DNA of 57,928 bases from a virus (lineage: Duplodnaviria > Caudoviricetes): positions 1 through 57,928 of IMG/VR virus record IMGVR_UViG_3300038312_000096. One strand, given 5' to 3'. The translations under genes and the position numbers were made by a program. Position 1 is the first letter of the stretch. Every line of letters starts with the position of its first letter. Below the pieces are notes generated by a model that was given only the letters and a program-made list of their open reading frames with translations, was not told the DNA's origin and searched no databases. Below, piece after piece: positions 1 through 57,928 of the stretch.

Positions 1-66
1 GGCTAGCCTAGCCGCTAACCAAGCATCTTCACTAATCAACACATTAATTCTCTTAGTCTTAGCCAT
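1..66 (-). CDS. 5' end of a gene identical to the start of 39675..40373 (MAKTKRINVLISEDAWLAARLA), truncated by window edge
   Basis: Identical DNA; AAGGAGG RBS. Confidence 0.85.
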   Translation of the reverse strand, partial: MAKTKRINVLISEDAWLAARLA

Positions 67-102
67 TGCTTTTCCTCCTTAGAGGGGCGCTAGGCCCCTC
101 GG
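1..102 (+). repeat. Direct repeat copy 1 (partner at 40308-40409)
   Basis: Bases 1-88 identical to 40308-40395; the hairpin that follows has the same stem. Confidence 0.97.
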
Positions 103-103
103 C

Positions 104-958
104 TTAATATGTGTGTACTCGCTCTTCTTTGGTTGTGCCGTCTTGCATTGCATAGACAACGATAATGTCGATTGAGCATTCTTCTCTAGGGTCGTTGCAC
201 TCTTCGCTGTATCTGTATAGTTCGACTGGTTTTCCGGTGGCTTTAGCTTCGTCAAACTTAGCTTGCTTCTCAGTTTCTTTCTCTGCTTTAGCTTTTGCTT
301 TAACTTCTAGTGCTGGCTTTGCGTATTCTTCAGCTTGCTGGTAGGTGAACTCTTCGCCTAGCGCTTCTACTGCATCGTCGTTAACACTTGTTCCCCAACC
401 AGATACTTCGTGAGCCAGGCCTAATTCTATTAGTAGGTCGGCTGCCTTTTCGTTGTAAACTTTCCAACCGCTTAAGTATTCGCCATCATGGTAGGTTGCT
501 TTGATTGTAGTTTTGCCACTCATTAGATTGTCCATTTCTTCTTTGTCTTTGCGTTCTTTCTCCGCGTAGTATTCTTGCTTTAGCTGGCTCTCTAGTTCTT
601 TTAGTTCGGTCAAGAAAGGTTCTGGTACCTTAAGTCCTTTAAGGTCTTTGCCATTTGCTGTAAATTCGAATCTCATTACTCCTCTGTAGCTGTCAAACTT
701 TGCGCCGCAGAAGAAGCCGTCGTTAATCTCGTTTTCTTCAATGCCAACCACTTTGTACTCTGCTTCCAGGATGTACGGATGCCACTCGAAATTCCTAAAC
801 TCAAACACGAAGCCGTTCTTTTCTATTCTCATTTCTGCACCCTCCTTGCGGGCCTCTGCCCAGGCTTCTTTTAGACCGAGGGAGATTCTGGCTCTATAGT
901 GGCCCTCGTATGTTTTTGCTAGTTGATGAGCTCTTTTCATGATTTCTCTTTTAGTCAT
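104..958 (-). CDS. Hypothetical early protein (284 aa), possible internal start at 832
   Basis: RBS GAGGGGG before ATG 958; second RBS AAGGAGG before in-frame ATG 832. Confidence 0.8.
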   Translation of the reverse strand: MTKREIMKRAHQLAKTYEGHYRARISLGLKEAWAEARKEGAEMRIEKNGFVFEFRNFEWHPYILEAEYKVVGIEENEINDGFFCGAKFDSYRGVMRFEFTANGKDLKGLKVPEPFLTELKELESQLKQEYYAEKERKDKEEMDNLMSGKTTIKATYHDGEYLSGWKVYNEKAADLLIELGLAHEVSGWGTSVNDDAVEALGEEFTYQQAEEYAKPALEVKAKAKAEKETEKQAKFDEAKATGKPVELYRYSEECNDPREECSIDIIVVYAMQDGTTKEERVHTY

Positions 959-972
959 TTTTCTTCTCCCCC

Positions 973-1219
973 TCGCTCTTTCTGATTTCATTATAACATG
1001 ACGTGCGTATGTAGTCAAGCACAAATGCACAAATATTTAAAAATAGTTTATATCAAATAAAAAAGCCCCGCGGGTAGGCGGAGCATGTCCTAAAATTTGG
1101 CTATTTACGTGAGGGAAACAAATGTTTTCTGCAATTTCAGAAGCCATCAGGTATAATTACATAGCTTGTACTTTGAAAATGCGTTAAATCGCTTTCTGTA
1201 GCGTATTCCCAGCTAGAAG
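973..1219 (+). repeat. Direct repeat copy 1 (~247 bp; partner at 40670-40916) containing promoter, hairpin and periodic element
   Basis: Near-identical to about 1180, then diverged but collinear. Confidence 0.95.
990..1018 (-). promoter_or_regulatory. Strong sigmaA promoter of the leftward accessory operon
   Basis: TTGACT-17-TATAAT with TG extension; conserved at 40687-40715. Confidence 0.85.
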
Positions 1220-1885
1220 CCCTGATATTCCAAAGGATTGCAAGAGATCGCTGTAAAGATGCCACAAAGTAGACGCAGTTGCCCCTTGTATGTATAACTT
1301 GCCAGACTTTTTAACACACTTCGCTTTTAGAAATAAATTATTGTAAGACGCTTTCCCTAAAAGTGGCTTAACTTGCTCGCAAATATCCTCCCAAACGAAA
1401 GCTACATCTTCTACAGTTTCTGTAATGGCGTTTCTCATGTTTCTAAGCACAGCACAGAAATATCCAACTAAAGAGCGAGGCTTCCTCATTATAGCTATTC
1501 TCGCAGCTTCTTCGATCATAGCAGGATCGTCTACTCTAGCGTTTCTGATAGCTTGCCTTATGCGTTGAGGTGAAGAAGATAGAAGACGAGCCGTTATCGA
1601 TACGACGTTTTCGTCTATAGTATCTATATTATTATATATAGATATATTGATCTGATCTACCGACAATTTTGTCGCAGTTATCAACAAGCCCTCTACACTC
1701 TCAATTACACCGACTGAATACAGTTCTTTTAGCTGACGCTCCACCGTTCGAACCGACTTCCCGACTTCGCCAGCAAGTTCTTCTTTGGTACGCACCCCAG
1801 CATCGATTAGTTGAGCGAGATATGCCGACTGTTGAGAGATACGGCCAGCTTTAACCAATTCTCTAACGGTGTTGAAAAAAGACAC
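1184..1885 (-). CDS. Plasmid-type replication initiator (N-terminal HTH)
   Basis: HTH TKEELAGEVGKSVRTVERQLKEL; next to parA; GTG start with AAGGGGG RBS; internal AT-rich palindromic tract at 1600-1675. Confidence 0.65.
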   Translation of the reverse strand: MSFFNTVRELVKAGRISQQSAYLAQLIDAGVRTKEELAGEVGKSVRTVERQLKELYSVGVIESVEGLLITATKLSVDQINISIYNNIDTIDENVVSITARLLSSSPQRIRQAIRNARVDDPAMIEEAARIAIMRKPRSLVGYFCAVLRNMRNAITETVEDVAFVWEDICEQVKPLLGKASYNNLFLKAKCVKKSGKLYIQGATASTLWHLYSDLLQSFGISGLLAGNTLQKAI

Positions 1886-1915
1886 AAAAATACCCCCTTG
1901 CAATTTAAGAGGGTA
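1886..1915 (-). terminator. Attenuator hairpin that also sequesters the rep RBS
   Basis: TACCCTCTT-aaattgc-AAGGGGGTA followed by TTTTT just before the GTG. Confidence 0.7.
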
Positions 1916-1926
1916 CATGATACAAT
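1898..1926 (+). promoter_or_regulatory. Promoter of antisense (counter-transcribed) RNA
   Basis: TTGCAA-17-TACAAT with TG extension, convergent on the rep leader. Confidence 0.7.
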
Positions 1927-1932
1927 ATCATC

Positions 1933-1994
1933 ACAACTTAGATATTACATCAGTACCAGAACCACCTAGCGGCTAACTAGGTGGTTTTCTCTTT
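1933..1994 (+). ncRNA. Putative copy-control antisense RNA (~60 nt)
   Basis: Promoter upstream; terminator AACCACCTAG-cggctaa-CTAGGTGGTT plus T-rich tail; complementary to the rep leader. Confidence 0.65.
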
Positions 1995-2000
1995 GTCCTC

Positions 2001-2029
2001 ATTTTCCCATTTAAAACTGTCTTTGTCAA
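2001..2029 (-). promoter_or_regulatory. Putative rep promoter
   Basis: TTGACA-17-GAAAAT with TG extension. Confidence 0.5.
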
Positions 2030-2088
2030 GTTGTTTTCTGAATTTATTATACATTAATTAATATATATTAGCTATTACTTATTAGCTA

Positions 2089-2505
2089 TTAACTAATAGA
2101 ACGTAGGTGATTAATTAATAACTTAATCAATTCCTGGTACAATTCTTTCTCCGACAACCCTTTCAGATGGCTCTCCCAGCCGTCTGGCAGAGTTCGCACA
2201 ACCTCTCCTAACACCAACATGGCTATATTCCATATATTGCCTGTTGTCATGTTGCCTCGACGGTATGGTCTATCTAGCTTACTGCTTATCTCATTTAGTA
2301 CATACTCTGCTCCTCGACACACTTCTTGTGAAGTCACTCCCCAGGTTTCGGCTTTGGCCTCAAATAATGTCTGTATGCCAGAGACGGTATCAAACCCTTC
2401 TAGGTGACTCTGTTCCTCTTTTGGGTCATCTTTGCTTAATAAAGCATTTCGATTAGCATTAGCGAATAGTGGATTATTAGAAAGTAGCTCTTTAATATCT
2501 GCCAT
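2089..2505 (-). CDS. Small ParA partner (putative centromere-binding protein)
   Basis: Directly downstream of parA; N-terminal unstructured-looking segment. Confidence 0.55.
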   Translation of the reverse strand: MADIKELLSNNPLFANANRNALLSKDDPKEEQSHLEGFDTVSGIQTLFEAKAETWGVTSQEVCRGAEYVLNEISSKLDRPYRRGNMTTGNIWNIAMLVLGEVVRTLPDGWESHLKGLSEKELYQELIKLLINHLRSIS

Positions 2506-2507
2506 TT

Positions 2508-3278
2508 TTATTGCTCCCTAGAAATTATTTCATCTGCTAGTGCTTGATAGTCTGTTGCCCCATTAGAGCTAGGCTCATAACCAATAACGGACTGGCCTGC
2601 CGAGGGCGATTCTTTCACTTTTACATTCTTTCGCACGACTGACTTAAAAACAATGTCTCCAAAAAAAGCCCTCGTCTGGTCCTCAGTCCCTTTAGTAATT
2701 TTTTCCCTAGAATCATACATAGTCAAAAATACTCCTGTTATAGCCAAATTACGATTGATGGCTCTCTTTACCTGGTCGATCGTGTTAGTAAGCTCGACTA
2801 TTCCTTCTAAGGCGTAGTAAGAGCAATCTACTGGCACATACACATCAGTCGATGCGGCGAAAGCGTTAATAGTTAATAGACCAAGTGACGGAGGACAATC
2901 AATAATAATATAGTCGTACTTTTTGCTCATCCTAGAAAGTGCATCTTTTAACTTTAATTCTCTGCTCATCATCTGAAAAAGGGTGATCTCTGCACCAGAT
3001 AATTGAATGTTGCTTGGTACTATGTCTACGCCTTCTGCTGTGGGTAAGATAGCTTTTTCTAGGGGGAAGTCATCCTCCACTAAAACATGGTACATACTTT
3101 TTTGCAGTTTGTACTTATCAATCCCAAAGCCAGTCGTTGCATTACCTTGGGGATCAGAATCGATCACCAACACCCTTTTATCTCTCTTAGCCAGCCCAAC
3201 AGCGATATTGATCGCACTAGTTGTCTTTCCGACGCCGCCTTTTTGATTGCTAATGGAAATAATTCTCACTGTAGCCAC
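2508..3278 (-). CDS. parA: ParA/Soj partition ATPase
   Basis: Deviant Walker A KGGVGKTT, DSDPQGN, IIIDCPPSLG. Confidence 0.95.
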   Translation of the reverse strand: MATVRIISISNQKGGVGKTTSAINIAVGLAKRDKRVLVIDSDPQGNATTGFGIDKYKLQKSMYHVLVEDDFPLEKAILPTAEGVDIVPSNIQLSGAEITLFQMMSRELKLKDALSRMSKKYDYIIIDCPPSLGLLTINAFAASTDVYVPVDCSYYALEGIVELTNTIDQVKRAINRNLAITGVFLTMYDSREKITKGTEDQTRAFFGDIVFKSVVRKNVKVKESPSAGQSVIGYEPSSNGATDYQALADEIISREQ

Positions 3279-3289
3279 CTCCTAGCAAC

Positions 3290-3396
3290 TATTATATATT
3301 ATCTATTAGCTAATAGCTATTAAATAATAAGAGGGCTTGTATAATAATTAATAACTAATAGGTAATGTATAATAATTAATAACTAATAAATAATAG
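3290..3396. repeat. AT-rich parS-like repeats upstream of parA
   Basis: TGTATAATAATTAATAACTAATA at 3338-3360 and 3366-3388; TATTAGCTA and TAACTAATA motifs also at 2066-2099. Confidence 0.6.
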
Positions 3397-3399
3397 AAA

Positions 3400-3417
3400 A
3401 CCTCCCCGAAGGGAGGC
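3400..3417 (-). terminator. Intrinsic terminator after the small peptide gene
   Basis: CCTCCC-cgaa-GGGAGG stem with T run on the minus strand. Confidence 0.7.
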
Positions 3418-3525
3418 TTATAGTTTATCGAGGTCGTCCTGTTTGATTACCTGGCTACGCTTTTCTTCCTTTTCTATAACAATAATAAGTACACTACACC
3501 CAATAACAACGGAGATAATTTTCAC
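3418..3525 (-). CDS. 35-aa peptide MKIISVVIGCSVLIIVIEKEEKRSQVIKQDDLDKL (not in ORF track)
   Basis: GGAGGTG RBS, GTG start, own promoter and terminator. Confidence 0.65.
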   Translation of the reverse strand: MKIISVVIGCSVLIIVIEKEEKRSQVIKQDDLDKL

Positions 3526-3537
3526 AAGCGACACCTC

Positions 3538-3586
3538 CGAATGTATGTTCGCTTATAATATTCACCTTGGGAACGCTTATTCCTTC
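3538..3586 (-). promoter_or_regulatory. SigmaH-like promoter with LexA (Cheo) box near the start site
   Basis: AGGA-17-GAAT at 3584-3560; CGAACATACATTCG at 3551-3538, close to CGAAC-N4-GTTCG. Confidence 0.65.
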
Positions 3587-3943
3587 TTATATATTATTTG
3601 ACGCCCTCCAAAGCCGTATCACTCTCGCCACTTCTGCTTGGCGATCTTCTGACAAGTCTTTGATCTGGTCCCAAATTGCCTTCATAGCCGGTGTGGACTT
3701 GATCATGTCTAGGAATAATCTATCTTCCCTAACAATCTCTTCTGCCTTAGGTGCGCCAATCAGATATTGCACCGTCACCCCTAGAGCATCGGCGAGTTTA
3801 TTCAAAGTCTCAACCGTCGGTGTCCTTTTTCCGTTTTCGATCTGACTTATATATGCGTAACTGAGATTAGTCTTGTCGGCTAAATCTCTTATAGTCATAT
3901 TCCTTTGTAGCCTTAGCTTTCTGACAATGTCCCCTAGCTCCAT
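3587..3943 (-). CDS. cI: Xre-family phage repressor without S24 autoprotease domain
   Basis: HTH MTIRDLADKTNLSYAYISQIENGKRTP; divergent from the lytic operon. Confidence 0.85.
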   Translation of the reverse strand: MELGDIVRKLRLQRNMTIRDLADKTNLSYAYISQIENGKRTPTVETLNKLADALGVTVQYLIGAPKAEEIVREDRLFLDMIKSTPAMKAIWDQIKDLSEDRQAEVARVIRLWRASNNI

Positions 3944-3965
3944 TTTGTTCACCCCTTGTAAAGTC

Positions 3966-4044
3966 ATTTTACACTAATAGTTATACGAACGCAAGAAAAA
4001 GTTTTATGCTTATAGTTGACATTCAGTTAGCTATGCGTTATAAT
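3966..4044. promoter_or_regulatory. Divergent switch promoters of phage A
   Basis: Plus strand: perfect TTGACA-17-TATAAT at 4016-4044; minus strand: TTGCGT-17-TAAAAT toward cI. Confidence 0.8.
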
Positions 4045-4127
4045 AAAACCAGAGCCGAAAGAAACGGCTATTTTATAACGTTTGATGTTAACTGATAGCG
4101 AACAGAGAGTAAGCAGGAGGGAAAGAA

Positions 4128-4289
4128 ATGTATAAAATTTATCTTACTTGTTCGAGCGGAATTAGAAAGTTTAAAGGTTACGCTAATGACGAAAATGAGA
4201 TGATTCAGAAAGTAGACAAAATCTTGGCAGGTTCTAAAGGTGTAGTTGAGGTTATGAAATTCGGAGCGACAGTCCTATTAGCAGCCTAG
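4128..4289 (+). CDS. 53-aa first gene of the lytic operon, ending in LAA (not in ORF track)
   Basis: AGGAGG RBS; homolog at 45830-46003. Confidence 0.75.
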   Translation: MYKIYLTCSSGIRKFKGYANDENEMIQKVDKILAGSKGVVEVMKFGATVLLAA

Positions 4290-4300
4290 GAGGGGTAAAG

Positions 4301-4573
4301 GTGATTAAGCAATTCAAAGAATCTTTAGAGAAAGAGCTGGGGTGTGAGGTTCGCATAACAATCGACATCTTCGACACTTGTTATAGAGAGGAAGCAAACG
4401 CATCTACTATAGCAGCTAAACTCAAAGATATGTTCGAAGGAATACTCAATAAGCCTAAAACAGTGTTGGAGGTAAGCGGTGATTGCAAAACAAGATGGTT
4501 AAGAGTCCAAGGCGATTACCTTCCAGATGGCGGGGCAGTTGTATTTTTACCCGAAAAGGAGGATATGCAGTGA
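4301..4573 (+). CDS. Hypothetical protein
   Basis: RBS GGAGGGG; in operon. Confidence 0.7.
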   Translation: MIKQFKESLEKELGCEVRITIDIFDTCYREEANASTIAAKLKDMFEGILNKPKTVLEVSGDCKTRWLRVQGDYLPDGGAVVFLPEKEDMQ

Positions 4574-4785
4574 GCAGAGTTTATGTGCAAACAGAGTACC
4601 TTGGCGAAGAAGTGGCTGTCGCCGAGGATAGATGGACTAACGGAGTGTCAGCAATGTTCGGGAACATAGAAATAACAGGCACAGCAGAAGACATTATTCT
4701 GTTGGCCGAAAGACTTAAAACAGGAGCGGAAGCGGTTAAGATTACAAAGCAGGAGCGCAGAGAAAGGCTAGGATTAACGCCCTGA
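4570..4785 (+). CDS. Hypothetical protein; its stop codon lies in the ribozyme core
   Basis: AGGAGG RBS; GTGA overlap with the previous gene. Confidence 0.7.
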   Translation: MSRVYVQTEYLGEEVAVAEDRWTNGVSAMFGNIEITGTAEDIILLAERLKTGAEAVKITKQERRERLGLTP

Positions 4786-4832
4786 TGAGTACCAGTTGGC
4801 AACTGGTCGAAACGCCCTTCGGGGCGTCGGCG
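4778..4832 (+). ncRNA. Type I hammerhead ribozyme
   Basis: CGCC-CTGATGA-stem II (G.ACCAG/CTGGTC)-GAAA-stem III (CGCCC ttcg GGGCG)-TC-GGCG; GUC cleavage after 4828. Confidence 0.9.
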
Positions 4833-4854
4833 AAAGCCAGAGAGGAGAGATTGC

Positions 4855-5490
4855 ATGAACGTATTTGAGAAATTGCAGACAGCAAAAGTTCGCTTGCAGG
4901 GAAAAAACTTGAAGAAAACCGGCAAAAACGCATTCAGCAAATACGATTACTTTGAACTAGGGGACTTCCAGCCAACCGTCAACAGCATCTTCTTAGAGCT
5001 GAAGCTGTTTTCTTACGTAAGCTTCACTAGAGAGCTAGCTACCTTGACTGTAATAAACATCGAAAAGCCAGATGAAGTTGTTGTTGTAACATCACCTATG
5101 GAGGACGCAGACTTAAAAGGATGCCACCCAATTCAAAATCTAGGAGCAGTAGAAACATACCAGAGAAGATATTTATACATGGCAGCACTTGACATGGTTG
5201 AGTCAGATGCAATCGACGCAGGGCAGGCCGAGCTTAGCAAAACTAAAAAAAGAGACTTTAAGCAAGAGTATGTTGATAAAGCCGCTGAAACAGGATTCGA
5301 CCTAGAGGACTTACAAATTCTCGCAGAAGAAACAGCTAAATTCCAACTCAAGAAAGAAACTAAATGGAAAGACATTCCCGACAACGTTTTTAATACTTTA
5401 ATGAAACAGCTGGAGAGCGACGAGAAGATAGCTGGTGCTAGAGCTCTTGTCACTAAGATAAAGGAGGGTCAGAAAGATGGCGTTGCTTGA
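4855..5490 (+). CDS. erf: ERF-family single-strand annealing protein
   Basis: KTGKNAFSKYDYFEL and QNLGAVETYQRRYL motifs. Confidence 0.85.
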   Translation: MNVFEKLQTAKVRLQGKNLKKTGKNAFSKYDYFELGDFQPTVNSIFLELKLFSYVSFTRELATLTVINIEKPDEVVVVTSPMEDADLKGCHPIQNLGAVETYQRRYLYMAALDMVESDAIDAGQAELSKTKKRDFKQEYVDKAAETGFDLEDLQILAEETAKFQLKKETKWKDIPDNVFNTLMKQLESDEKIAGARALVTKIKEGQKDGVA

Positions 5491-6019
5491 GCAAGAATTT
5501 AACGAGTTCCTGGATGAGCAATTTCAGCCTCAAGATGAAAGCTGGCGGGTACGTTCGGATGACGAAGCTAGTTGGTGCCTTAGAAAGATCAAACACCTTC
5601 AAGAACAGCAAGCAGAAAGAGCAGCCTTCGTGCAGAGAGAGATTGACCGTCTTCGCACATGGCAGCAGGAGCAAGACGATAAAGAGGCTTCCTCTGTAGC
5701 GTTCTTCACTGTCAAGCTTCAAGAGTATTACCTCAACCTGGGCGAGAAGTTGAATGGCAAGAAGTCATATAAGTTGCCTTTCGGTACGTTGCAAATGAGA
5801 AAGAAGCCTGCGAAGTTAGAGAGAGACGATGAGAAGTTGATGGAATTAGCCCGGCCTCTAGGACTCGTGAAGGTAAAAGAGTCGCTAGACTGGGCAGAGT
5901 TAAAAAAGCAGTTAGTGATTGATGGCTATAAGGTAGTCAACAAAGAAACTGGTGAGTTAGTCGAAGGCATAACGGTTGTAGAGGCTGAGGGTGACGAGTT
6001 CAGTATCAAAGTAGATTAG
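5477..6019 (+). CDS. Gam-like host-nuclease inhibitor
   Basis: Coiled coil followed by KSYKLPFGTLQMRK and KESLDWAELKK. Confidence 0.75.
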   Translation: MALLEQEFNEFLDEQFQPQDESWRVRSDDEASWCLRKIKHLQEQQAERAAFVQREIDRLRTWQQEQDDKEASSVAFFTVKLQEYYLNLGEKLNGKKSYKLPFGTLQMRKKPAKLERDDEKLMELARPLGLVKVKESLDWAELKKQLVIDGYKVVNKETGELVEGITVVEAEGDEFSIKVD

Positions 6020-6053
6020 GGCGGTCAATCCGCCCTCTTAGGAGGGGTAGAAG

Positions 6054-6317
6054 ATGAGTGTTTTCTTAGGTAATTTATCCATTCACCAAATACAAGAACG
6101 ACTAGGTATAGAGTTGACTGCGGAAGAAGTTAAGTTTTTTGAGTCATCATGGCAAGAGAGAGCATCTGATATAGATCCTAACAAATGGCACTGCTTCGAT
6201 ATGCCTTTTATGCTAGCCTGCGGAAGTAGAGAGTTCGCAATAAAAGTATATGGTATTCTAGGCCAATATTCAGACCAAATGACGACCCAATTACAGGTCG
6301 GAGTAGAGGGGAGTTAA
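6054..6317 (+). CDS. Hypothetical protein
   Basis: Good RBS; in operon. Confidence 0.7.
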   Translation: MSVFLGNLSIHQIQERLGIELTAEEVKFFESSWQERASDIDPNKWHCFDMPFMLACGSREFAIKVYGILGQYSDQMTTQLQVGVEGS

Positions 6318-6355
6318 CGCAGGATAAAACAGTAGATTTCCAGGGAGGGGTAGAG

Positions 6356-6559
6356 ATGGTTATTTCCAAGAACTGCCTAGCCCTTGAAGTAGCGGGGCAG
6401 GTTGTCGCAGTCACTCCTGTAAAGGGCAGCTATGTGTGGGTTACAGAAGGAAGCAGTGGCAAGGAGAGTAATATACTAGAAGCGTTAAAGATGGCAGCAA
6501 TGCAAGCAAGGAGGGAAGAAGATGCGAGTTATAGAGTTCAGAGGCAAGAGGCTAGATAA
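6356..6559 (+). CDS. Hypothetical protein, homolog of 47791..47982
   Basis: EVAGQVVAV versus TVEGQVIAV; shared GKE.N and AA.QA.RE. Confidence 0.7.
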   Translation: MVISKNCLALEVAGQVVAVTPVKGSYVWVTEGSSGKESNILEALKMAAMQARREEDASYRVQRQEAR

Positions 6560-6950
6560 GGGTGGGTGGGTTTATGGCAATTTAGTTAGTGATGGCAAAA
6601 GGTATTTTATTATCTACGATAACGACATAACAGAATGTACTCGATACGGTGAACGATATATCGAAGCAAGCAGATACTTTGAGGTTGACCCCGAAACAGT
6701 AGGGCAGTGTACAGGGTTAAAAGACAAGAATGGTACTAAGATTTACGAGGGCGATATTATTAAAATATTTGGCATAGGATACAACTATGGTTACAGCCAG
6801 CAGATCGTGAGTGTATCTTGGGATGCTGAAAAAATGTGTTTTATGTGTGGCAAAAGCAAGAGTTTATATAATTATTCTACTATTAGTTGGGCAAAGATTG
6901 AAGTTATCGGTAACATTCACGACAACCCCGAACTTTTGGAGGTGGAGTAG
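6522..6950 (+). CDS. YopX-family protein
   Basis: EFRGKR..WVYG, TVGQCTGLKDKNG.KIYEGDI, EVIGNIHDNPELL. Confidence 0.9.
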   Translation: MRVIEFRGKRLDKGGWVYGNLVSDGKRYFIIYDNDITECTRYGERYIEASRYFEVDPETVGQCTGLKDKNGTKIYEGDIIKIFGIGYNYGYSQQIVSVSWDAEKMCFMCGKSKSLYNYSTISWAKIEVIGNIHDNPELLEVE

Positions 6951-7601
6951 ATGCCTAAGCCGATTATATTTAGCACCGAGATGGTGCAAGCAATATTAGA
7001 CAAAGGCAAATCAGTCACTAGGAGAATTGTAAAGCCACAACCACTAAAGTACCAAATCGGAGATATGCTTTATGTTAAAGAAACGTGGCGAATAGATGGT
7101 TGGGATATAGATGAACTAGTAATAGCAGTTGATTACAAAGCAGGAAACTGCAACAAACGAAAATGGATTTGCGTTGAAGACGAAGATATATTTTTAAGGT
7201 ATGTCGAACAATCGGCAGAAGATGCCGAAAAAAAGGGACTCGGTATTAATGAAAATGGAAAATATCATTGGAAACCAGGGGAATCCCCTACAAGATGGAG
7301 ATCGCCAATCCATATGTCTAAAGAACTAGCACGAATCTTTTTGAAAGTTACAGGTGTAAGAATCGAAAGATTACAAGATATAACGGAAGAGGGCGCTAGA
7401 GCAGAGGGGTTTTCTGTAAAAATACGCCATATAAAAACGCACGAAGGAAACAATTTTAACGGTAGCACTACGGCAAGGGAAGAGTTCGTTGGTTATTGGA
7501 ATAGCCTGAACGAAAAATCAGGTTGGGATTGGGATGCCAACCCATGGGTGTGGGTAATCGACTTTGAGAGGATTAGCAAGGAGGAGGCGTTAAATGCCTA
7601 G
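6951..7601 (+). CDS. ASCH/PUA-like phage protein
   Basis: KPIIFSTEMVQAIL..K.VTRR, WRSPIHM, ERLQDITEE.ARAEG, NPWVWV. Confidence 0.7.
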   Translation: MPKPIIFSTEMVQAILDKGKSVTRRIVKPQPLKYQIGDMLYVKETWRIDGWDIDELVIAVDYKAGNCNKRKWICVEDEDIFLRYVEQSAEDAEKKGLGINENGKYHWKPGESPTRWRSPIHMSKELARIFLKVTGVRIERLQDITEEGARAEGFSVKIRHIKTHEGNNFNGSTTAREEFVGYWNSLNEKSGWDWDANPWVWVIDFERISKEEALNA

Positions 7602-8001
7602 AGATTTGAAGAAAGACCTCGAACTTTGTAACAAAGCTACCAAAGGTCCTTGGTACACCGGGGGAATAGACGGAGTACCCAACCGACTTATAGCAACTAC
7701 CTCTTTCTTCGGTGGTGGCAAGGTATACACCAGAGGGCAAGATGCTAGTCCCGGAGCGGATGCAGAGTTTATCGCAGCTGCAAGGGAAGGGTGGCCAGAA
7801 GCGATAGAGAGGGCTATGAGGGCAGAGAAAGCGCTAGAAATAGCTTGCGTTATTCTTGCTGATATTGCAGACAACTGTGCCTTTGACCTCTCCGTCGTGT
7901 GTCGCCAAAACAGTGACTGCGACAAAGACCCCTCGAAGTGTCACCAAGAGTATTTTTTAGAGTTAGCAAGTGAGCTAGAGAGGGAGGATTTAAATGCTTA
8001 A
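7594..8001 (+). CDS. Ead/Ea22-like protein
   Basis: KATKGPW and DAEFIAAAR motifs. Confidence 0.6.
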   Translation: MPRDLKKDLELCNKATKGPWYTGGIDGVPNRLIATTSFFGGGKVYTRGQDASPGADAEFIAAAREGWPEAIERAMRAEKALEIACVILADIADNCAFDLSVVCRQNSDCDKDPSKCHQEYFLELASELEREDLNA

Positions 8002-8245
8002 ACGCTTAGGGCTTCTCCTTCTTCTTTCGCTATTGCTACTGGCAATCTTTTCCAGCACCGCAAAAACAACCTACACCGAGACTGTAACACACGTTGTCGC
8101 ATCTAACGAAACTTTGTGGAGCATAGCGAAGAGTTACAACCCAAACAAAGACATTAGACGAGTAGTTGACGAGATACGGAAGATTAATAATTGTTCGGCG
8201 TTGATACGTATAGGGCAGGAGCTGGAAGTGCCGGTGTGGAGGTGA
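7994..8245 (+). CDS. Membrane-anchored LysM protein (YneA-like)
   Basis: Hydrophobic N-terminus; HVVASNETLWSIA..IRIGQELEVP. Confidence 0.8.
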   Translation: MLKRLGLLLLLSLLLLAIFSSTAKTTYTETVTHVVASNETLWSIAKSYNPNKDIRRVVDEIRKINNCSALIRIGQELEVPVWR

Positions 8246-8249
8246 GGGA

Positions 8250-9166
8250 GTGAAGTTTTTAGACTTCTTCGCAGGTATTGGCGGCTTCCGTCTAGGTATG
8301 GAAATGGCAGGTCATGAGTGCGTAGGTCACTGCGAGATAGATAAGTTTGCTCAAGCTAGTTATACCGCTATGCACAACCCAAAAGAAAGTGAGTGGTTTG
8401 CCGATGACGTCACAACAGTTGACCCTTCTGAATTGCCCGAAGCAGACTGCTGCTGTGGAGGATTTCCGTGTCAGAGCTTTAGCGTTGCTGGAAAGCGGGG
8501 GGGTTCGAGGACACACGAGGCACTTTATTTTTTGAAATCATGCGGTTGGCAAAAGTACGAAACCCTAAATATATTTTCCTTGAGAACGTCAAAGGACTTC
8601 TTTCCCACGATGGAGGACAAACTTTCGGAACAATCCTCTCAACTTTGGGGGAATGTGGGGATGATGTCGAATGGCAGGTGCTTAACAGCAAAGATTTTGG
8701 AGTTCCCCAAAATAGAAAAAGAGTGTTCATTATCGGACATCTTAGAGGGAGAAGTAGACCAAAAGTATTTCCTATCACAGAAACAAGCAATGCAACTCTT
8801 AAGCAACTTGTTGGAGGAAGCCAAGGATACAGAGTGTATGACCCGAGCGGAGTAAGTTGCACCCTAGCAAGTGAAGCTGGTGATATGGGAGCTAAAACAG
8901 GTCTATATTTCGTTAACCAGCCTCGATACGGTAAATATCAAGGAAGCAAAACAAGCCAGACAATTAGAGTTGGTGGAGATATACCATTAGTTCTGGAATC
9001 ATCTTTTGTAAGACGCCTTACCCCCAAAGAGTGCTTCCGCTTGCAAGGCTTTCCCGACGAATATTTCGAGCGAGCTAAAGCGGTTAATAGCGATAGCCAA
9101 CTCTACAAGCAAGCAGGCAATTCCGTTACTGTAAACGTGATATATGAGATTGCTAAGAGATTGTGA
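8250..9166 (+). CDS. DNA (cytosine-5) methyltransferase, frameshifted at a G7 tract (8497-8503)
   Basis: FAGIGG and GFPCQ in one frame; ENVKGL, PQNRKRVFI, RLQGF and QAGNSV in another; one extra G restores KRGGFEDTRGTLF. Confidence 0.88.
8610..8855 (+). CDS. Alternative-frame peptide nested in the methyltransferase (possible beta subunit)
   Basis: Open overlapping frame with ECSLSDILE..VDQKYFLS; start codon uncertain. Confidence 0.5.
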   Translation: MEDKLSEQSSQLWGNVGMMSNGRCLTAKILEFPKIEKECSLSDILEGEVDQKYFLSQKQAMQLLSNLLEEAKDTECMTRAE

Positions 9167-9175
9167 GGTGAAAGC

Positions 9176-9973
9176 ATGGCAATTATACGAGTAGAGAAGC
9201 AACGGAACTTTGTCGCAATAGACAAAACTTGCCTAGAGGACGATCGACTTAGTTTCAAGGCAAAAGGTTTACACTCTTACTTGATGAGCCGCCCCGACAA
9301 TTGGAAACCTATCTTGGAACAATTATCGACAGTTAGCAAGGACAAGCAAGCATCAGTAAGGGCTGGGATGAAGGAGCTCGAAGACTGTGGCTATATTATC
9401 AGAAGACCAGTAAAAGATAATGGCAAAATAGTCGAATGGGAACACATTGTATATGAAAAACCACAAAAGCCCAGCTTGAGTCCACAAGTTGGTTTTCCAC
9501 AAGTGGAAATCCCACAAGTGGAAATCCCACAAGTGGAAAATCGAAGACTAATAAGTAATGAAGTAATAAATAATGATCTAATAAGTAATGAAGTAATAAA
9601 CCTCCTATCTGCTGCCGCAGACGACCCCCCACCAAAATATGATACAGACTCAGAACCCTATAAGCTAGCACATTACCTCAGAGAGCAAATCCTCTTACGT
9701 GACCCACAAACCAAAGTGCCTGCTAATACTTTAGAAGCTTTGCAATCTTGGTCGAAAGACGCCGATCGAATGATTAGACTAGACCACAGAGACTTTGCAG
9801 AGGCTAAAGAGCTTATTAAATGGTGTCAGCAAGATTCCTTCTGGAGTTCCAACATTTTAAGCATGGCGACCTTCAGAAAACAGTATGACAAACTCAAGAG
9901 GCAGAGTGGAGGGAAGAAGAAGTATGACCCAACAGCAGTCGATTGGGAAGCAGAAGCAGCAAAATACCTGTAA
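9176..9973 (+). CDS. Phage replication initiator
   Basis: LSFKAKGL..YLMSRPDNW N-terminus; internal iterons; precedes the DnaC-like loader. Confidence 0.85.
   Translation: MAIIRVEKQRNFVAIDKTCLEDDRLSFKAKGLHSYLMSRPDNWKPILEQLSTVSKDKQASVRAGMKELEDCGYIIRRPVKDNGKIVEWEHIVYEKPQKPSLSPQVGFPQVEIPQVEIPQVENRRLISNEVINNDLISNEVINLLSAAADDPPPKYDTDSEPYKLAHYLREQILLRDPQTKVPANTLEALQSWSKDADRMIRLDHRDFAEAKELIKWCQQDSFWSSNILSMATFRKQYDKLKRQSGGKKKYDPTAVDWEAEAAKYL
9482..9600 (+). repeat. Lytic origin: four 15-bp iterons plus two AT-rich repeats
   Basis: CCACAAGT(G/T)G core four times at 15-bp period; CTAATAAGTAATGAAGTAATAAA twice. Confidence 0.85.
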
Positions 9974-46963: not shown

Positions 46964-46965
46964 TA

Positions 46966-47760: not shown

Positions 47761-47790
47761 TGCCTCCTGCGATTAAAGGGAGGGCTGAAA

Positions 47791-47982
47791 ATGGTTGTCA
47801 TTGACCACATCTTTTATATAACGGTAGAGGGTCAGGTAATAGCAGTAGCCCAAGCAGGTGATGGCTACTACTGGGCGACAGGAAAAAAGACCGGCAAAGA
47901 AGATAATTCGATGATGGCAATTAAAATAGCCGCACGACAAGCAACCAGAGAAGCTAAGAGAGAGGAAATCTTAGTAGGATAG
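47791..47982 (+). CDS. Hypothetical protein, homolog of 6356..6559
   Basis: Sequence similarity within the window. Confidence 0.7.
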   Translation: MVVIDHIFYITVEGQVIAVAQAGDGYYWATGKKTGKEDNSMMAIKIAARQATREAKREEILVG

Positions 47983-47993
47983 GAGGTGATAGC

Positions 47994-48215
47994 GTGAAAG
48001 CCCTACAAACAACGAGAGAGCGTGCGACTAAACACGCTCTCCACAGGGTAGACTGCAGCCTTTGTAAAGCTAGAGCTAAGAGCTGGCTAGAAAAGGCCGC
48101 AGATATAATATTCTTCAGTGAAGCGTTTGAATCCTTCATGGCAGCATTGATTGTGGTGGGAGGCCTTTATTTCTTGGCCCATTTAGCTATAGCAATTTTC
48201 AGAGGGTGGTTATAG
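47994..48215 (+). CDS. Small membrane protein
   Basis: C-terminal hydrophobic helix; AGGAGGTG RBS. Confidence 0.6.
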   Translation: MKALQTTRERATKHALHRVDCSLCKARAKSWLEKAADIIFFSEAFESFMAALIVVGGLYFLAHLAIAIFRGWL

Positions 48216-49036
48216 TGGACAAGCTACAAGACAAAAGGCGAGCAGGTTGGTTTTGGGATTCGAATACGATATTTGATTCAGGGTTATCAGCTTACGCGAT
48301 ACTAGTAAGGCTTTATCTTGCTAGATGCGCAGATAGTGACGGTGTAAGCTTCCCGGCAATAGCTACTATAGCAAATAAGTGCAATATAAGCAGGGCTTCT
48401 GTTGTCCGAGCTCTCAAAGAGTTAGAGGCAAAAGGCTGGCTATGCAGAAAGCCGAGGATAATACCAGGAACAAAGGCAAAAGCAACAACAATTTACACAC
48501 TCATAACACCTAGTGAAGAAGCAGCATCAACGTCAGAAACTGCTGACCTAGGTTCACACAGAACCGAGGGTAGGTTCTCACAGAACCTAGGGTCGGCTCA
48601 CACAGAACCGAGGGTAGGTTCTCACAGAACCAGAGAAGGACTACCCATAGAAGGACTACCTAATAAAGGACTACCCATAGAAGGACATATGTGTGCATCA
48701 GAACCAGAACAGCAAGATAAATATACTGCCGAGTTCGAATCATTTTGGCAAGAGTATCCAAGGAAAAAAGAAAAGAAGCGAGCTTACCGAGCGTGGAAAG
48801 CTGCTCTCAATAAAAAAGCAGAACCGCAACAGCTGATAACTGCCGCTAAACATTACTTCTACCACACTACAACAGAGCGAACAGATCAGAAATATATAAA
48901 ACACCCTTCGACATTTTTAGGACCAGACGAACCGTGGCGAGAGTGGCTAGAACCACCGAAGATTGGAGGCGGTAAGAGTGGAAAGTACGATCCAACAGCA
49001 GTCGATTGGGAAGCTGAAGCCGCAAAGTACCTGTAA
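48206..49036 (+). CDS. Replication initiator (HTH_36-like)
   Basis: FPAIATIA..C.ISR.SV..L.ELE; FW..YPRK; KHPSTFL; internal iterons. Confidence 0.85.
   Translation: MVIVDKLQDKRRAGWFWDSNTIFDSGLSAYAILVRLYLARCADSDGVSFPAIATIANKCNISRASVVRALKELEAKGWLCRKPRIIPGTKAKATTIYTLITPSEEAASTSETADLGSHRTEGRFSQNLGSAHTEPRVGSHRTREGLPIEGLPNKGLPIEGHMCASEPEQQDKYTAEFESFWQEYPRKKEKKRAYRAWKAALNKKAEPQQLITAAKHYFYHTTTERTDQKYIKHPSTFLGPDEPWREWLEPPKIGGGKSGKYDPTAVDWEAEAAKYL
48548..48686 (+). repeat. Origin iterons of phage B
   Basis: CACAGAACC units four times at 21-22 bp period; AAGGACTACC three times at 15-bp period. Confidence 0.85.
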
Positions 49037-49793
49037 TAAAGCGGGGACATGCTTAAACGGCAAGTACATGGATGAATACGTGGACTATAATATGCTACCA
49101 GCTAAAGAGTATACGAAATACATGGAAGCAATGAAGAACGGCACTGCACTAGACGGATACAAAACATGCCCAAGATGGGGGTTACCTGCCTACTCCGAAC
49201 TGGCTTGTATCAGAAAAAGAGATACTTGGCCCGCTAAACTTAGGCAAGCTGATATACCTGCAAGATACGAGTTTGCAAATAGAAGCGGCATAGAGCTAGA
49301 TCAAACAGCGATAAAAAGCTGGAAGATAATTAATAAATACATGGATAATTTAGAGACATATATGGGCGCTGGGCAAGGATTGATAATGTTTGGTAGCTTT
49401 GGGACGGGCAAGACTACAGCGGCGGTAGTGGTGGCACAAGAGGCTTTAAGCAAAGGCTACTCTGTAAAGTTCCTGGGTGTCGACTACCTCACGGCTGAAC
49501 TGCGAGGTATGCAATACGAGCAGGCGGCAATCTTCAGAAACGAGTTAGCGGAGAAAGACTTGATTATTCTTGATGGCCTAGAGGCAGACGCAGATGGAAA
49601 GTGGCTATTAGAAGAGGTCGGAGCAATAATTTCTAGACGATATGACAACAGAAAAGCAATAATAATTACTACTAACAGCACACCAGCACAATTACAAAAC
49701 AGCTCTTTACCCAAGCGTTATGTTGAGCGCATACTGCACAGTTGTAAGGTTGTCCCACTCACTGGGAAAAATTGGCGAGAAGGAGCATTGTAA
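48978..49793 (+). CDS. DnaC/IstB-like loader, close paralog of 9924..10715
   Basis: GSFGTGKT; long identical protein stretches. Confidence 0.9.
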   Translation: MESTIQQQSIGKLKPQSTCNKAGTCLNGKYMDEYVDYNMLPAKEYTKYMEAMKNGTALDGYKTCPRWGLPAYSELACIRKRDTWPAKLRQADIPARYEFANRSGIELDQTAIKSWKIINKYMDNLETYMGAGQGLIMFGSFGTGKTTAAVVVAQEALSKGYSVKFLGVDYLTAELRGMQYEQAAIFRNELAEKDLIILDGLEADADGKWLLEEVGAIISRRYDNRKAIIITTNSTPAQLQNSSLPKRYVERILHSCKVVPLTGKNWREGAL

Positions 49794-49794
49794 A

Positions 49795-50478
49795 ATGAAA
49801 ATTACCTTACCGGACCTTCCGGTCATTGCAACATCAGACTTTATGACACAGATGGTCAAGGTAGAAGAAGAAGCTAGGGAGCTCGTTGAGTCTATTGAGT
49901 TATTTCAGCCAGGGAGCGATTCATCACTCTGCGACATGCTGGGCGAGGCACTAGACACGGTTCAAGCGATTGCTGGATTATTAGAAATTCTTGATGATGA
50001 TGTGTTAGAAACAGCGATAGAATATCACACAGAAAAGTTACAAAGAAAGTATGCCGCTAAAGGTTATACAGTGGTAATACGCAGGGGAGGTAAGATAATG
50101 AATAAAGCGATTTTGATAGGCAGGCTTACACGTGATCCAGAGCTTAAGCATACCCAAAACGGCAACCCGGTTGCCAACTTTACGCTAGCAGTAGACCGAG
50201 GATATGGAAAAGAGAAAGAAGCGGACTTTATAAATATCGTTGTTTGGAACAAAGCGGCCGAGGCTGTTGAAAAGTATCTTGGCAAAGGCAGTCTTGTTGC
50301 TGTTGAGGGAAGCATTAGGGTAAGGAGTTATGAGGCCAAAGATGGCGGGCGCAGATATGTGACTGAGGTAGTTGCCAATAACGTCAAATTCTTGGAGAAA
50401 AAAGGACAATCTGAAGCGAGCGACCAGGAGCATTACGACAATAGGCCAGATCCATTTGAAGAAGAGGCGCCATTTTGA
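49795..50478 (+). CDS. ssb: MazG-like domain in frame with SSB (SSB start at 50098)
   Basis: KVEEEARELVE..EALD helical motif; internal GGAGGT RBS then MNKAILIGRLTRDPEL. Confidence 0.8.
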   Translation: MKITLPDLPVIATSDFMTQMVKVEEEARELVESIELFQPGSDSSLCDMLGEALDTVQAIAGLLEILDDDVLETAIEYHTEKLQRKYAAKGYTVVIRRGGKIMNKAILIGRLTRDPELKHTQNGNPVANFTLAVDRGYGKEKEADFINIVVWNKAAEAVEKYLGKGSLVAVEGSIRVRSYEAKDGGRRYVTEVVANNVKFLEKKGQSEASDQEHYDNRPDPFEEEAPF

Positions 50479-56011: not shown

Positions 56012-56163
56012 AAATAATAAAGGCTATCTTAACTATATTGTTCATGTTGCAATACTTATATAGCACGTTTAACCTCAAAAAAGAAAATAGTGTTAACAAA
56101 AATGTATACTATGGGATGCAGGCTATTATGGGCTTAATATGGTTTCTTTGGTTCATGAGGTAA
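56008..56163 (+). CDS. Small two-helix membrane protein
   Basis: GGAGGTG RBS; GTG start. Confidence 0.55.
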   Translation: MKIIKAILTILFMLQYLYSTFNLKKENSVNKNVYYGMQAIMGLIWFLWFMR

Positions 56164-56174
56164 GGGGTGAAAAA

Positions 56175-56684
56175 GTGAAGTGTAAGCATTGTGGAGCGTG
56201 TAATAAATGCAAAAAGCATCAAGAGGTAGTAATAGGCATAGACCTGTCTTCTAGAAAAGACTTAACAGCTGTAGTAAGGAGGCCCATAATGAGTGGAGAC
56301 AAAAGACCTCGTAGTTTAGCGGAGGCTTATAAAAAAACAATAGACGAAAACAAAGAAATCAATTTATCTGAGATAGATGAAGCCGCTGATATTACTATAT
56401 ATGATGGCAGGACTGTAGTATCTTTTAATGATGGTAGCAGGTTGACTCGTTTTGCTGACGGAAACACTTATGCGCAAGACGGCTTTGGTGTGTTTTTAGA
56501 TGATGTAATAGAAAGCGCAAAGTTAAAATATGTTTATATAGTCTTAGAGAAGGTAATGGGGCGCCTTGTGATAAGCGGAGTTTTTGACACAGAAGAAAAG
56601 GCAATGGAATACAAAGACTTAAGATATAGATATAATGTTAGTTGCTTTGTTGAAAAGTGGGAGATTAACGGTAAACTTAAGTAA
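56175..56684 (+). CDS. Hypothetical protein
   Basis: AAGGGGTG RBS. Confidence 0.6.
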   Translation: MKCKHCGACNKCKKHQEVVIGIDLSSRKDLTAVVRRPIMSGDKRPRSLAEAYKKTIDENKEINLSEIDEAADITIYDGRTVVSFNDGSRLTRFADGNTYAQDGFGVFLDDVIESAKLKYVYIVLEKVMGRLVISGVFDTEEKAMEYKDLRYRYNVSCFVEKWEINGKLK

Positions 56685-56710
56685 CTACTTATAGACCATC
56701 TACCTGCAAG

Positions 56711-56756
56711 ATGACAGAAAGATGATAGTTTTGAGGGTGGTTTCTGTGATATTGTG
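56711..56756 (+). promoter_or_regulatory. Probable activator-dependent late promoter of phage B
   Basis: ATGACAG/ATGATAG direct repeat where a -35 would be, then TG-extended -10-like TGTGATATTGT. Confidence 0.55.
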
Positions 56757-56987
56757 TTAGTGGGAGTAGATGTCCCGAAGCCTGACCGCAGAGACAGAGT
56801 GTGGCCAGGCTTTTATTATAACCATCAAGCCTTCTAGCAGGCATTATACTTGTAAATGGCTTGTAATCAACGTTTAGACAAGCACTTAAGCATTAACACA
56901 AACAGAGTAACTAGAAAGGCTTATAAACGTTCTAGTAAAGCCATTATTAAGCAGTTAAGATATAAAAAAGTAGGGAGGTAGTTGTAG

Positions 56988-57128
56988 GTGGAAGTTAACA
57001 AAATAGAACTAGAATTAAGCACTACTAAGCTAACAAAGAAACTGCATTTAATTAGCGATTACTTCAAAGCATTAGCTACTGAGCTAGAAGAAGTAGATAG
57101 AGAAGAAGAAGACTCAAAGGCAAGATAA
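56988..57128 (+). CDS. Small hypothetical protein (46 aa; not in ORF track)
   Basis: GGGAGGT RBS; GTG start. Confidence 0.55.
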   Translation: MEVNKIELELSTTKLTKKLHLISDYFKALATELEEVDREEEDSKAR

Positions 57129-57131
57129 CTA

Positions 57132-57887
57132 GTGCAAAAATGGGCAGAGAAGTTTTATAAAGGCAAAGAGTGGATAAAGCTAAGAAACGCTTACTTCGCT
57201 AGTCAGTACGGTATCTGTGAAAGATGCAGTGAGCCTGGATTAATAGTGCATCACAAGATATATTTAACGCCAAAGAATATAGGCAATCCAGAAGTCTCCC
57301 TCAACTGGGACTTGCTAGAACTACTGTGCTTAGAGTGCCACAACAAAGAGCATGGCGGGGATGTTATTGCAGATGGCCTCATGTTTGACGAGGATGGGAA
57401 CCTGGTAAAGGAGAGACAAGCTATGCGAGGCTACAAGTTTGACGCAGAAGGCAACATGGTGCCAGCAGATGTCTATGTCGTTTGGGGAGCACCAGCTAGC
57501 GGTAAGACTACTTACGTCAGAAACCACATGAAGCCTGGTGACCTAGTGATTGACCTAGATTTAATAAAGCAGGCAATCAGTATGCAGGGCAGGGACGAGG
57601 TAGACGGTTCTCTGCTTAATATAGCAATACAAGTAAGAGACATGCTTTATAGCCTGGTAGCTAATAGAAAAGTTAATAGTGATGTGTGGGTAGTAGCTTG
57701 CTTACCTAAGGATGAACAGAGAGATAAGCTTGGGGAACTTCTTAAGACAAGTAAGTTTATATATATCAATGCGACCAAAGAAGAGTGCATACAGAGAGCT
57801 TTATCTGATAGTGATAGAGCAGATAAGGAATTGCAGTTAGAGATAATAGAAACATGGTTTAACAGTCATTGTAGTGGCAACGATTAA
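57132..57887 (+). CDS. Packaging-type HNH endonuclease fused to a P-loop kinase-like domain
   Basis: CERC; VHHK; LC.ECHNKEH; then WGAPASGKTTYV; internal RBS and ATG at 57423. Confidence 0.85.
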   Translation: MQKWAEKFYKGKEWIKLRNAYFASQYGICERCSEPGLIVHHKIYLTPKNIGNPEVSLNWDLLELLCLECHNKEHGGDVIADGLMFDEDGNLVKERQAMRGYKFDAEGNMVPADVYVVWGAPASGKTTYVRNHMKPGDLVIDLDLIKQAISMQGRDEVDGSLLNIAIQVRDMLYSLVANRKVNSDVWVVACLPKDEQRDKLGELLKTSKFIYINATKEECIQRALSDSDRADKELQLEIIETWFNSHCSGND

Positions 57888-57928
57888 CCCCCCCTATCTG
57901 GGTTAAGTGGGACTTATGGCCCGTACCG

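Follow-up and report, generated by a model that had tools for sequence, protein, structure and literature searches.

A 57.9-kb viral contig as a probable assembly path through two separate temperate phages that share an accessory cassette

We analysed a complete virus record (IMGVR_UViG_3300038312_000096) consisting of one contig of 57,928 nucleotides (nt), referred to below, at its whole length, as the window. The window is best explained as an assembler path that runs round a circular phage, A, and then passes through a shared block into a separate phage, B, an explanation to which we give a probability of roughly 85%. The record would then hold the genomes of two separate temperate siphophages, both from one uncultured Bacillota community and concatenated during assembly; the path would start at the fork behind the shared block (S), go round A, traverse S again and exit on the B branch. 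We favour this reading because the two phages have unequal depths, because the paths fork at position 40395 and because an independent A-type contig crosses the circle junction of A without B. It is also favoured because two further contigs, one from an ENA metagenome (L001) and one from a metagenome-assembled genome (MAG; L097), show a B-type right end in its own context, and because B has a packaging gene of its own. The cassette through which the phages are joined, made of S, a variable gene X and an intergenic block R2, is at the same time a real mosaic unit that recombines between both phage lineages.

One search found part of 36000-45999 in 15 runs from 7 studies of fermentation, sludge and digester metagenomes. 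Four runs (X1, X4, X6 and X7) were compared with the window as k=31 contigs over 30001-50000 only, and all evidence from runs is at the contig level, with depth given as mean word depth per contig. X1 is the probable source run of the window. Two related contigs carried most of the comparison: the A-type IMG/VR contig IMGVR_UViG_3300029822_000067 (L002/L008; 25,194 bp, 23,040 covered) and L001 (26,591 bp, 13,324 covered). The parts of the window around the join are as follows, with sizes of proteins in amino acids (aa).

1..40307: phage A, a circle of 40,307 bp traversed once, after which its first 88 bases come again (exact overlap; X1 contig past 40395; L002/L008)
39273..40395, minus strand: S, the block common to A and B, with a 129-aa gene and a 232-aa gene, both encoding acidic near-orphans
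1..88: exact repeat copy of 40308-40395, holding half of a hairpin and, from the 232-aa gene, the start and ribosome-binding site; it stops at the A/B fork
104..961, minus strand: X_A, the variable gene of the cassette, 285 aa if read from the likely ATG and 308 aa if read from the first GTG (phrog_33472, 1.1e-16)
40411..40653, minus strand: X_B, the alternative cassette gene, 80 aa, no family found
962..1186: R2a, conserved intergenic block with the X promoter, a minus-strand terminator and a conserved stretch of ~105 nt (aligned with L001 and L002)
40654..40883: R2b, with the X promoter (40715-40687) and a terminator (40781-40762), both on the minus strand

The join is framed by two of the five direct-repeat families that a repeat search found in the window. 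By script, 1-88 equals 40308-40395 exactly, with the first mismatch at 89, just as an earlier note on this DNA had claimed; an exact repeat of 88 bases is far beyond chance, and similarity of 1-106 to 40308-40413 is still 95%. The second match proposed there (973-1219 with 40670-40916) was also recovered, with 210 of 221 positions identical in an ungapped comparison of 966-1186 with 40663-40883 (script) and 90.1% identity in a gapped alignment of 950-1219 with 40645-40916. Between the two repeat blocks lie unrelated genes, X_A on one side (104-961) and X_B on the other (40411-40653). The other exact matches of at least 31 bases between A and B-specific DNA are only four, of 57 and 46 nt in R2 and of 62 and 31 nt in a YopX gene, and the remaining DNA similarity between 1-40307 and 40308-57928 is limited to the DnaC-like gene (78% nt) and part of the YopX gene (94% nt). 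On its left side the shared block extends further than the earlier note had it: S continues leftwards as far as 39273, with exact identity at k=31 beginning at 39533. In X1 the stretch 39533-40395 is a single contig with forks at both ends, and loose ends lie at 39273 and 40395; S is thus identical at k=31 in the source sample over at least 863 bp, and the whole stretch that joins A and B comes to about 0.9-1.1 kb. Copies of S in L001 and L002 are 93% and 96% identical in nt to that of the window.

The contigs of X1 that match the window with 0-1 differences, on the A side and on the B side, had these depths:

30001-32618, A: 123.4
32964-33489, A: 117.4
33460-39313, A: 118
39533-40395, A: 118.7
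40366-40801, B: 16.3
40850-41607, B: 18.7
41578-48583, B: 21.5
48602 onward, B: 23.6

A comparison of A and B depth, suggested earlier as a check, therefore gave an unequal result at the contig level of X1, 117-123x against 16-24x, with A contigs about 5.5 times deeper than B contigs. One X1 contig stops exactly at 40395, the end of the 88-base repeat, which falls inside a hairpin (40389-40407). Past 40395, an X1 contig runs on for at least 255 further letters, the first 30 of which are window 89-118, and the B piece of X1 begins 30 bases ahead of the same fork. Two branches at 40395 mean that in X1 S leads into X_A as well as into X_B, at very unequal depths. At the other end of S, contigs of X1 and X6 join at 39273 from a hairpin followed by a run of T, and in X1 this sequence matches the late-operon terminator of L001 (6128-6160). 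From these forks, the source sample holds the circle junction of A, an entry of B's own into S and both exits from S. The 88 repeated bases that open the contig run exactly up to the A/B divergence, as a graph edge does, and their number would fit an assembler k of 89. The caution in the earlier note, that a de Bruijn path circling A and exiting into B gives just such an overlap, is thus supported by the depths, the fork and the independent A-type contig. In X7, the ranges 39725-40387 (1 difference in 663) and 40663-48297 are represented by contigs of depths 3-7; the almost bare 30001-39338 of that run beside its B pieces could be taken as B without A, and we did not use it, a lack of cover being no evidence.

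Four elements were compared around the cassette:

A (window): A-type virion; full S; X_A; right of R2 the winged-helix gene, the 138-aa gene and ParA
B (window): own TerS, the rest cut off; full S; X_B; right of R2 a lipoprotein gene, attP and integrase
L002/L008 (IMG/VR): A-type late genes at 92-99% nt; S with 39644-40232 deleted; X_B; winged-helix gene, 138-aa gene and ParA
L001 (ENA metagenome contig): late genes unlike those of A; S at 93% nt; X_A; lipoprotein gene, core and a decayed integrase

L002/L008 carries, in order, the head, tail and lysis genes of A (24493-37567), the cut-down S, X_B, a transposase insert, R2, the winged-helix gene, the 138-aa gene and ParA, and runs on past ParA into repressor and ERF; the proteins right of R2 are 98.8%, 100% and 99.6% identical to those of A, respectively, and nothing in this contig matches the integrase, CI repressor or lipoprotein of B. 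Its insert (L002 15272-17146), of 1.9 kb, separates the X promoter from the terminator within R2 and encodes a 440-aa transposase, which by eye seems ISL3-like, and a 114-aa open reading frame (ORF). In all 4 of the 4 elements the type of maintenance tracks the backbone, an A-type virion going with partition genes (par) and non-A late genes with an integrase (int). Gene X, on the other hand, reassorts: X_A accompanies par in A but int in L001 (91% aa), and X_B accompanies int in B but par in L002 (87% aa), so that all four combinations of X allele and maintenance type are present among the four elements. From this pattern, what is exchanged is the accessory cassette and not the maintenance module.

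R2 itself is finely mosaic. Over 1040-3472, A and L002 differ at 43 positions, 25 of which fall inside 1108-1173, where A matches B and L001; across the wider block of ~105 nt, A agrees with B and L001 at 98 of 105 positions and with its par-type sibling L002 at 80 of 105. The conserved part of R2 ends at the stop codon of the winged-helix gene in A and 45 nt ahead of the lipoprotein gene in B. Beyond that edge the phages diverge as the earlier note had described, A into the winged-helix gene, the 138-aa gene and ParA, and B into the lipoprotein, attP and a tyrosine integrase.

Other explanations of the join have to be weighed against this one. The two phages could have been truly joined, circular A and B having recombined homologously within S so that the window records a double-size intermediate of exchange. 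Such a cointegrate could be considered, as a stretch of at least 863 bp is the same in A and B at k=31 within a single sample, annealing recombinases are encoded on both sides (ERF in A, RecT with RecE in B), past recombination is shown by the X alleles reassorted between par-type and int-type elements, and the join was produced by the window's own assembler. We nevertheless regard it as improbable: with A some 5.5 times deeper in X1, a joined form could account for no more than a minor share of A, that run contains the two alternative exits from S, independent contigs place each phage in its own context, and a cointegrate of ~80 kb would be too large for a head sized for 40 kb. A related proposal, which we hold to be similarly unlikely, makes S-X-R2 a dedicated joint for exchange, in which transient A::B cointegrates would form in S and resolve in R2, the window having caught one of them; the ERF and RecT proteins of the phages would aid recombination in S. 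If this were true, X alleles, and now and then entire maintenance modules, would pass through the joint from one lifestyle to the other among phages sharing a host. It is less probable still that the window is a true stretch of chromosome with A and B as tandem prophages, a possibility we consider close to negligible. B is indeed integrated in several runs, but the window carries its attP form (lipoprotein, core, integrase) rather than a bacterial junction and holds no bacterial genes, A is without an integrase, and the depths differ 5.5-fold.

The earlier note had inferred a swap of maintenance modules at one fixed point, a switch between the phage-plasmid and integrating-prophage lifestyles; A and B would then be close relatives set apart by a recent swap at the right edge of R2. 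The boundary it pointed to is there, at the stop codon of the winged-helix gene in A and 45 nt before the lipoprotein gene in B, and the fine mosaicism of R2, with A like B and L001 and unlike L002 in 1108-1173, also speaks for it. On the other hand, the similarities of A and B outside the cassette are just two and short, and the phages differ in TerS families, recombinases and repressors. Moreover, maintenance type follows the backbone in 4/4 elements while X reassorts, and neither an A-type virion with an integrase nor a B-type backbone with par was found among the elements seen. The swap is thus weakly supported, and we judge it very unlikely; the data fit the exchange of a cassette between two different temperate phages better than a maintenance swap between relatives.

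Several points weigh against reading the window as an assembly path through a plasmid-like A and a separate B. The shared contig 39533-40395 has a depth of 118.7, that of A alone, where ~118 + 20 would be expected if it were common to both; this is unexplained, beyond coverage noise or a B allele that may lie outside the contigs listed. The runs were compared as k=31 contigs, so the evidence includes neither read pairs nor long reads, X1 may be the window's own sample, so that its graph is not independent, and the join was made by the original assembler, for which paired-read support may underlie it. As for A, closure of its circle is also expected from a terminally redundant phage genome, its maintenance as a plasmid is drawn from gene content, and integration junctions of A were sought only within 30001-50000.

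With these points in mind, the most likely state of A in lysogens, judged from its sequence, would be that of a plasmid, since ParA, a small partner gene, the winged-helix protein and a repressor are present while no integrase was recognised. The genes of A are:

1184..1918, minus strand: winged-helix 244-aa protein, candidate plasmid-type replication initiator or regulator (sub-threshold Pfam)
2089..2505, minus strand: 138-aa gene, candidate ParB-type adaptor by its position directly downstream of ParA
2508..3278, minus strand: ParA partition ATPase (AAA_31 6.9e-66, CbiA 5.2e-25)
2042-2112 and 3273-3395: AT-rich 14-nt-periodic repeats flanking the par genes, candidate centromere sites
3587..3967, minus strand: repressor-type helix-turn-helix protein (HTH_3 2.3e-20)
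4855..6019, plus strand: ERF-type annealing protein and Gam-like protein (ERF 7.5e-07, Phage_Mu_Gam 1.8e-24)
9176..11784, plus strand: replication genes for DnaD-like, DnaC-like, 240-aa sigma-like and SSB proteins (phrog_2514, phrog_50, phrog_44)
17673..37417, plus strand: packaging, head, tail and lysis module (TerS phrog_309; TerL phrog_30251, 2.4e-240)
37552..39272, minus strand: decayed A-specific cargo, a helicase fragment and an N-terminally short phrog_18108 protein

Among the 22 ORFs of A of at least 180 aa, all of which were scanned against Pfam and/or PHROGs, none matched an integrase, recombinase, transposase or telomere-resolvase family, and a blastp search with the B integrase gave no match among A proteins. 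Of the replication and partition genes named in the earlier note, the partition part stands, with its strong ParA match, and the replication label is a lead only, the 244-aa protein having just sub-threshold Pfam matches (HTH_24 at 20.5 bits against a cutoff of 21.9). For this protein the ESM-Atlas lead points to clusters of HTH_36, DnaA_N and Phage_rep_O type (score 0.95, 169 shared features), a PDB sequence search gave no relative, and 296 pattern matches in genome contigs yielded 0 confirmed ones; the only homologue found is the copy in L002/L008 (98.8% aa). The 138-aa protein matched no family in Pfam, PHROG or PADLOC scans and is 100% identical in L002. Together with the flanking 14-nt-periodic repeats (7 copies of one repeat family), its gene is consistent with a par locus. 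From IMG/VR, 80 ParA loci were retained; 79 of them show 37-47% identity and 0 of these 79 have the winged-helix or 138-aa genes of A, a result that is uninformative on A.

The virion module of A is complete, with TerS, TerL, portal, minor and major head proteins, tape measure, fibres and a lysozyme domain, and its TerL is 72% identical to TerL of Clostridium and Clostridioides phages. Ahead of TerS, the plus-strand genes also include YopX, a methyltransferase and RusA. The cargo next to S is specific to A: it is missing from L002, and one X4 contig jumps from 38298 to 39294. Its helicase fragment has 173 aa (ResIII 3.4e-05; phrog_62 positions 692-796 of 1881) with weak PbeA/Cas3 matches, PADLOC at 38145-38666 gave weak helicase-fragment matches only, and the phrog_18108 protein is without about the first 45-80 positions of its profile. 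A few features of A were observed in passing. The DNA methyltransferase at 8250-9166 is split into two overlapping frames, 8250-8855 covering phrog_116 positions 208-302 and 8540-9166 covering 305-489, a split that suggests either a frameshift near 8535 or an error of assembly. A complete tRNA-Thr(TGT) lies at 13796-13869, just upstream of a 443-aa exonuclease-like gene, and was the only match found with Rfam. The sole ORF with a lysozyme domain (36757-37089) has 110 aa, covers profile positions 34-113 of 125 and shares 93.6% identity with its copy in L002; the probable reading is therefore a real, if short, endolysin domain or a piece of a split gene.

Phage B is a temperate phage that integrates at tRNA-Arg(ACG) by means of a tyrosine integrase, and public contigs carry its integration junctions. 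Its genes and sites in the window are:

40929..41382, minus strand: DUF4352 lipoprotein (DUF4352 2.6e-08; lipobox by eye; longest ORF to 41513)
41526..41582, plus strand: attP core (3' 57 nt of tRNA-Arg(ACG))
41487..41704, plus strand: four exact copies of GTAGCCTACA on either side of the core, candidate integrase arm sites
41717..42751, minus strand: tyrosine integrase (Phage_integrase 5.1e-25 and SAM-like N-domains)
42756..43364, minus strand: CI/LexA-type repressor (Peptidase_S24 2.3e-30, HTH_3 1.9e-10)
46016..50478, plus strand: recombination and replication genes for RecE-like, RecT, DnaD-like, DnaC-like and SSB proteins (phrog_434 2e-114, phrog_148 1.3e-92, phrog_270, phrog_50, phrog_44)
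57132..57887, plus strand: small terminase, first packaging gene and last gene before the contig end (phrog_4581 7.3e-51)

The core of attP, 135 nt downstream of the end of the integrase gene, reads by eye as the 3' portion of a tRNA-Arg with anticodon ACG, and it agrees at every position with the 3' 57 nt of a complete tRNA-Arg(acg) gene on the MAG contig L097, which belongs to 'Firmicutes bacterium UBA4881', an unclassified Bacillota. All 4 exact copies of GTAGCCTACA in the window fall within 41487-41704. Contigs with the 5' halves of tRNAs join from the host side at 41526-41536 in X4, X6 and X7, and on the exit side contigs depart at 41566/41582 into diverse flanks in X1, X4, X6 and X7; these are integration junctions. 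The lipoprotein of B is 100% identical in aa in L001. There, and in L097 beside the complete tRNA-Arg(acg), lies the same decayed integrase (L001 9869-10427), a remnant that is frameshifted, lacks its N-terminus and has 74% and 56% aa identity to the B integrase; in the MAG it sits directly behind the tRNA-Arg. This remnant is the trace of an older integration at the same tRNA-Arg site, and L001 is best read as the right (attR-type) junction of a B-type prophage inserted beside that older remnant.

B also encodes an antirepressor and RusA, and matches in Pfam and PHROGs bear out the claim that the window holds two sets of switch, recombination and replication genes. The accompanying claim of only one virion module is true of the contig and not of the biology. 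The terminase at the contig end is of another family (phrog_4581, against phrog_309 in A), so B has a packaging module of its own that starts where the contig stops and is truncated. Among the integrases of the phage collection, the closest to that of B are 34-39% identical and come from Butyrivibrio and gut phages. IMG/VR searches with the integrase and the RecE-like gene gave no close relative of B, the RecE-like search finding no relative of that gene, and nine IMG/VR loci returned for the integrase match its residues 75-114 only and were treated as spurious. At the DNA level, 37000-57928 had zero matches in the phage collection, and the collection had no close relative for 1-20000 either, which matched only the methyltransferase stretch, in 21 Streptococcus phage records. 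A 39-nt stretch of R2 had 0 matches in IMG/VR and 1 in metagenome contigs (L001).

In both phages the cassette lies on the minus strand between late genes and maintenance genes. Its sigma-70-type promoter, TTGACT-17-TATAAT on the minus strand at 40715-40687 (an 11/12 match, with TG), is predicted to drive X and then the 232-aa and 129-aa genes, and the minus-strand terminator at 40781-40762 closes the operon upstream. By its position, strand and promoter, the cassette is probably an accessory operon expressed in lysogens, and on the same grounds our best guess for its role would be superinfection or anti-defence. Pfam, PHROG, PADLOC, Atlas and fold searches gave no function for it. The sole family match of X_A, phrog_33472, is a family of unknown function; X_A had no match in Pfam or PADLOC, and its single-sequence AlphaFold model (predicted local distance difference test, pLDDT, 61.4) had 0 Foldseek matches against PDB at E<=0.001, so that no function was drawn from it. 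Likewise, X_B is without a family in Pfam, PHROG and PADLOC. By eye, both S proteins seem to contain many acidic residues, and PADLOC gave zero matches on the S genes and the lipoprotein of B. The 232-aa protein had 2 relatives in a search of 5.8 billion clusters and 6 at E<=0.001 among 1.84 billion representatives; no relative was found in IMG/VR, and an Atlas search gave uninformative scores of at most 0.81.

Some further details of the cassette were seen. At 39533/39534 both L001 (6856-7081) and L002 (14425-14650) have 226 additional bases, and the 129-aa ORF of the window looks like two small genes fused by a deletion. The boundary of an X1 contig falls exactly at 39533, so fused and unfused forms may coexist in that run. 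The most conserved part of R2 (1122-1186 and 40819-40883) holds a plus-strand ORF of 21 codons with a GAGGG ribosome-binding site, which by eye is open in L001 and, with a GTG start and many codon changes, in L002; it may encode a small peptide or an RNA, or may have arisen by chance. In X4, position 40752 is common to three contigs with a summed depth of 95, from which R2 is present in several elements there.

These results have a practical side: the 57.9-kb record is better split into a complete genome of 40.3 kb and a fragment of 17.6 kb, and its apparently doubled lysogeny genes are no ground for listing it as a hybrid element. De Bruijn assemblies of metagenomes give chimeric or over-length viral contigs at repeats. 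The window resembles such a chimera in that its overlap ends at a fork, its depths are unequal and its length is about 1.4 genomes, and we saw no difference. B is an ordinary tRNA-integrating phage. Like the siphophages of Bacillota that integrate at tRNA genes, it has an integrase, an S24 repressor, an antirepressor, RecE/RecT, DnaD- and DnaC-like proteins and an attP that rebuilds the 3' end of the tRNA, although integrases of the phage collection are at best 34-39% identical to its own and no close relative was found in IMG/VR.

Mosaicism of temperate phages arises by exchange at conserved boundaries, and moron cassettes come with a promoter and terminator of their own. S-X-R2 is moron-like, lying between lysis and lysogeny genes, flanked by conserved sequence, with a variable gene in the middle and a strong promoter and a terminator of its own; it differs from textbook mosaicism in being near-identical in a par-type and an int-type phage of one community. 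Known types of phage-plasmid include P1, N15 and SSU5. A is a candidate new phage-plasmid of uncultured Bacillota, and like phage-plasmids it combines a full virion and lysis module with a ParA locus and a repressor, without an integrase. Unlike them, it has relatives of its winged-helix and 138-aa genes in only one IMG/VR contig, its plasmid-type Rep is only a candidate, its extrachromosomal state is deduced from genes, and its host is an uncultured Bacillota, not an enterobacterium. A survey of phage-plasmids reports that they exchange genes with integrative prophages and that the types convert into each other (Pfeifer and Rocha, Nat Commun 2024, PMC10879196). The unit exchanged in our case is an accessory cassette and not the maintenance genes. 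A candidate phage-plasmid and a tRNA-Arg phage of the same fermenter communities trade a promoter-bearing cassette of near-orphan acidic proteins, a concrete natural case of gene flow between phage-plasmids and integrative phages, the general process being already described (PMC10879196).

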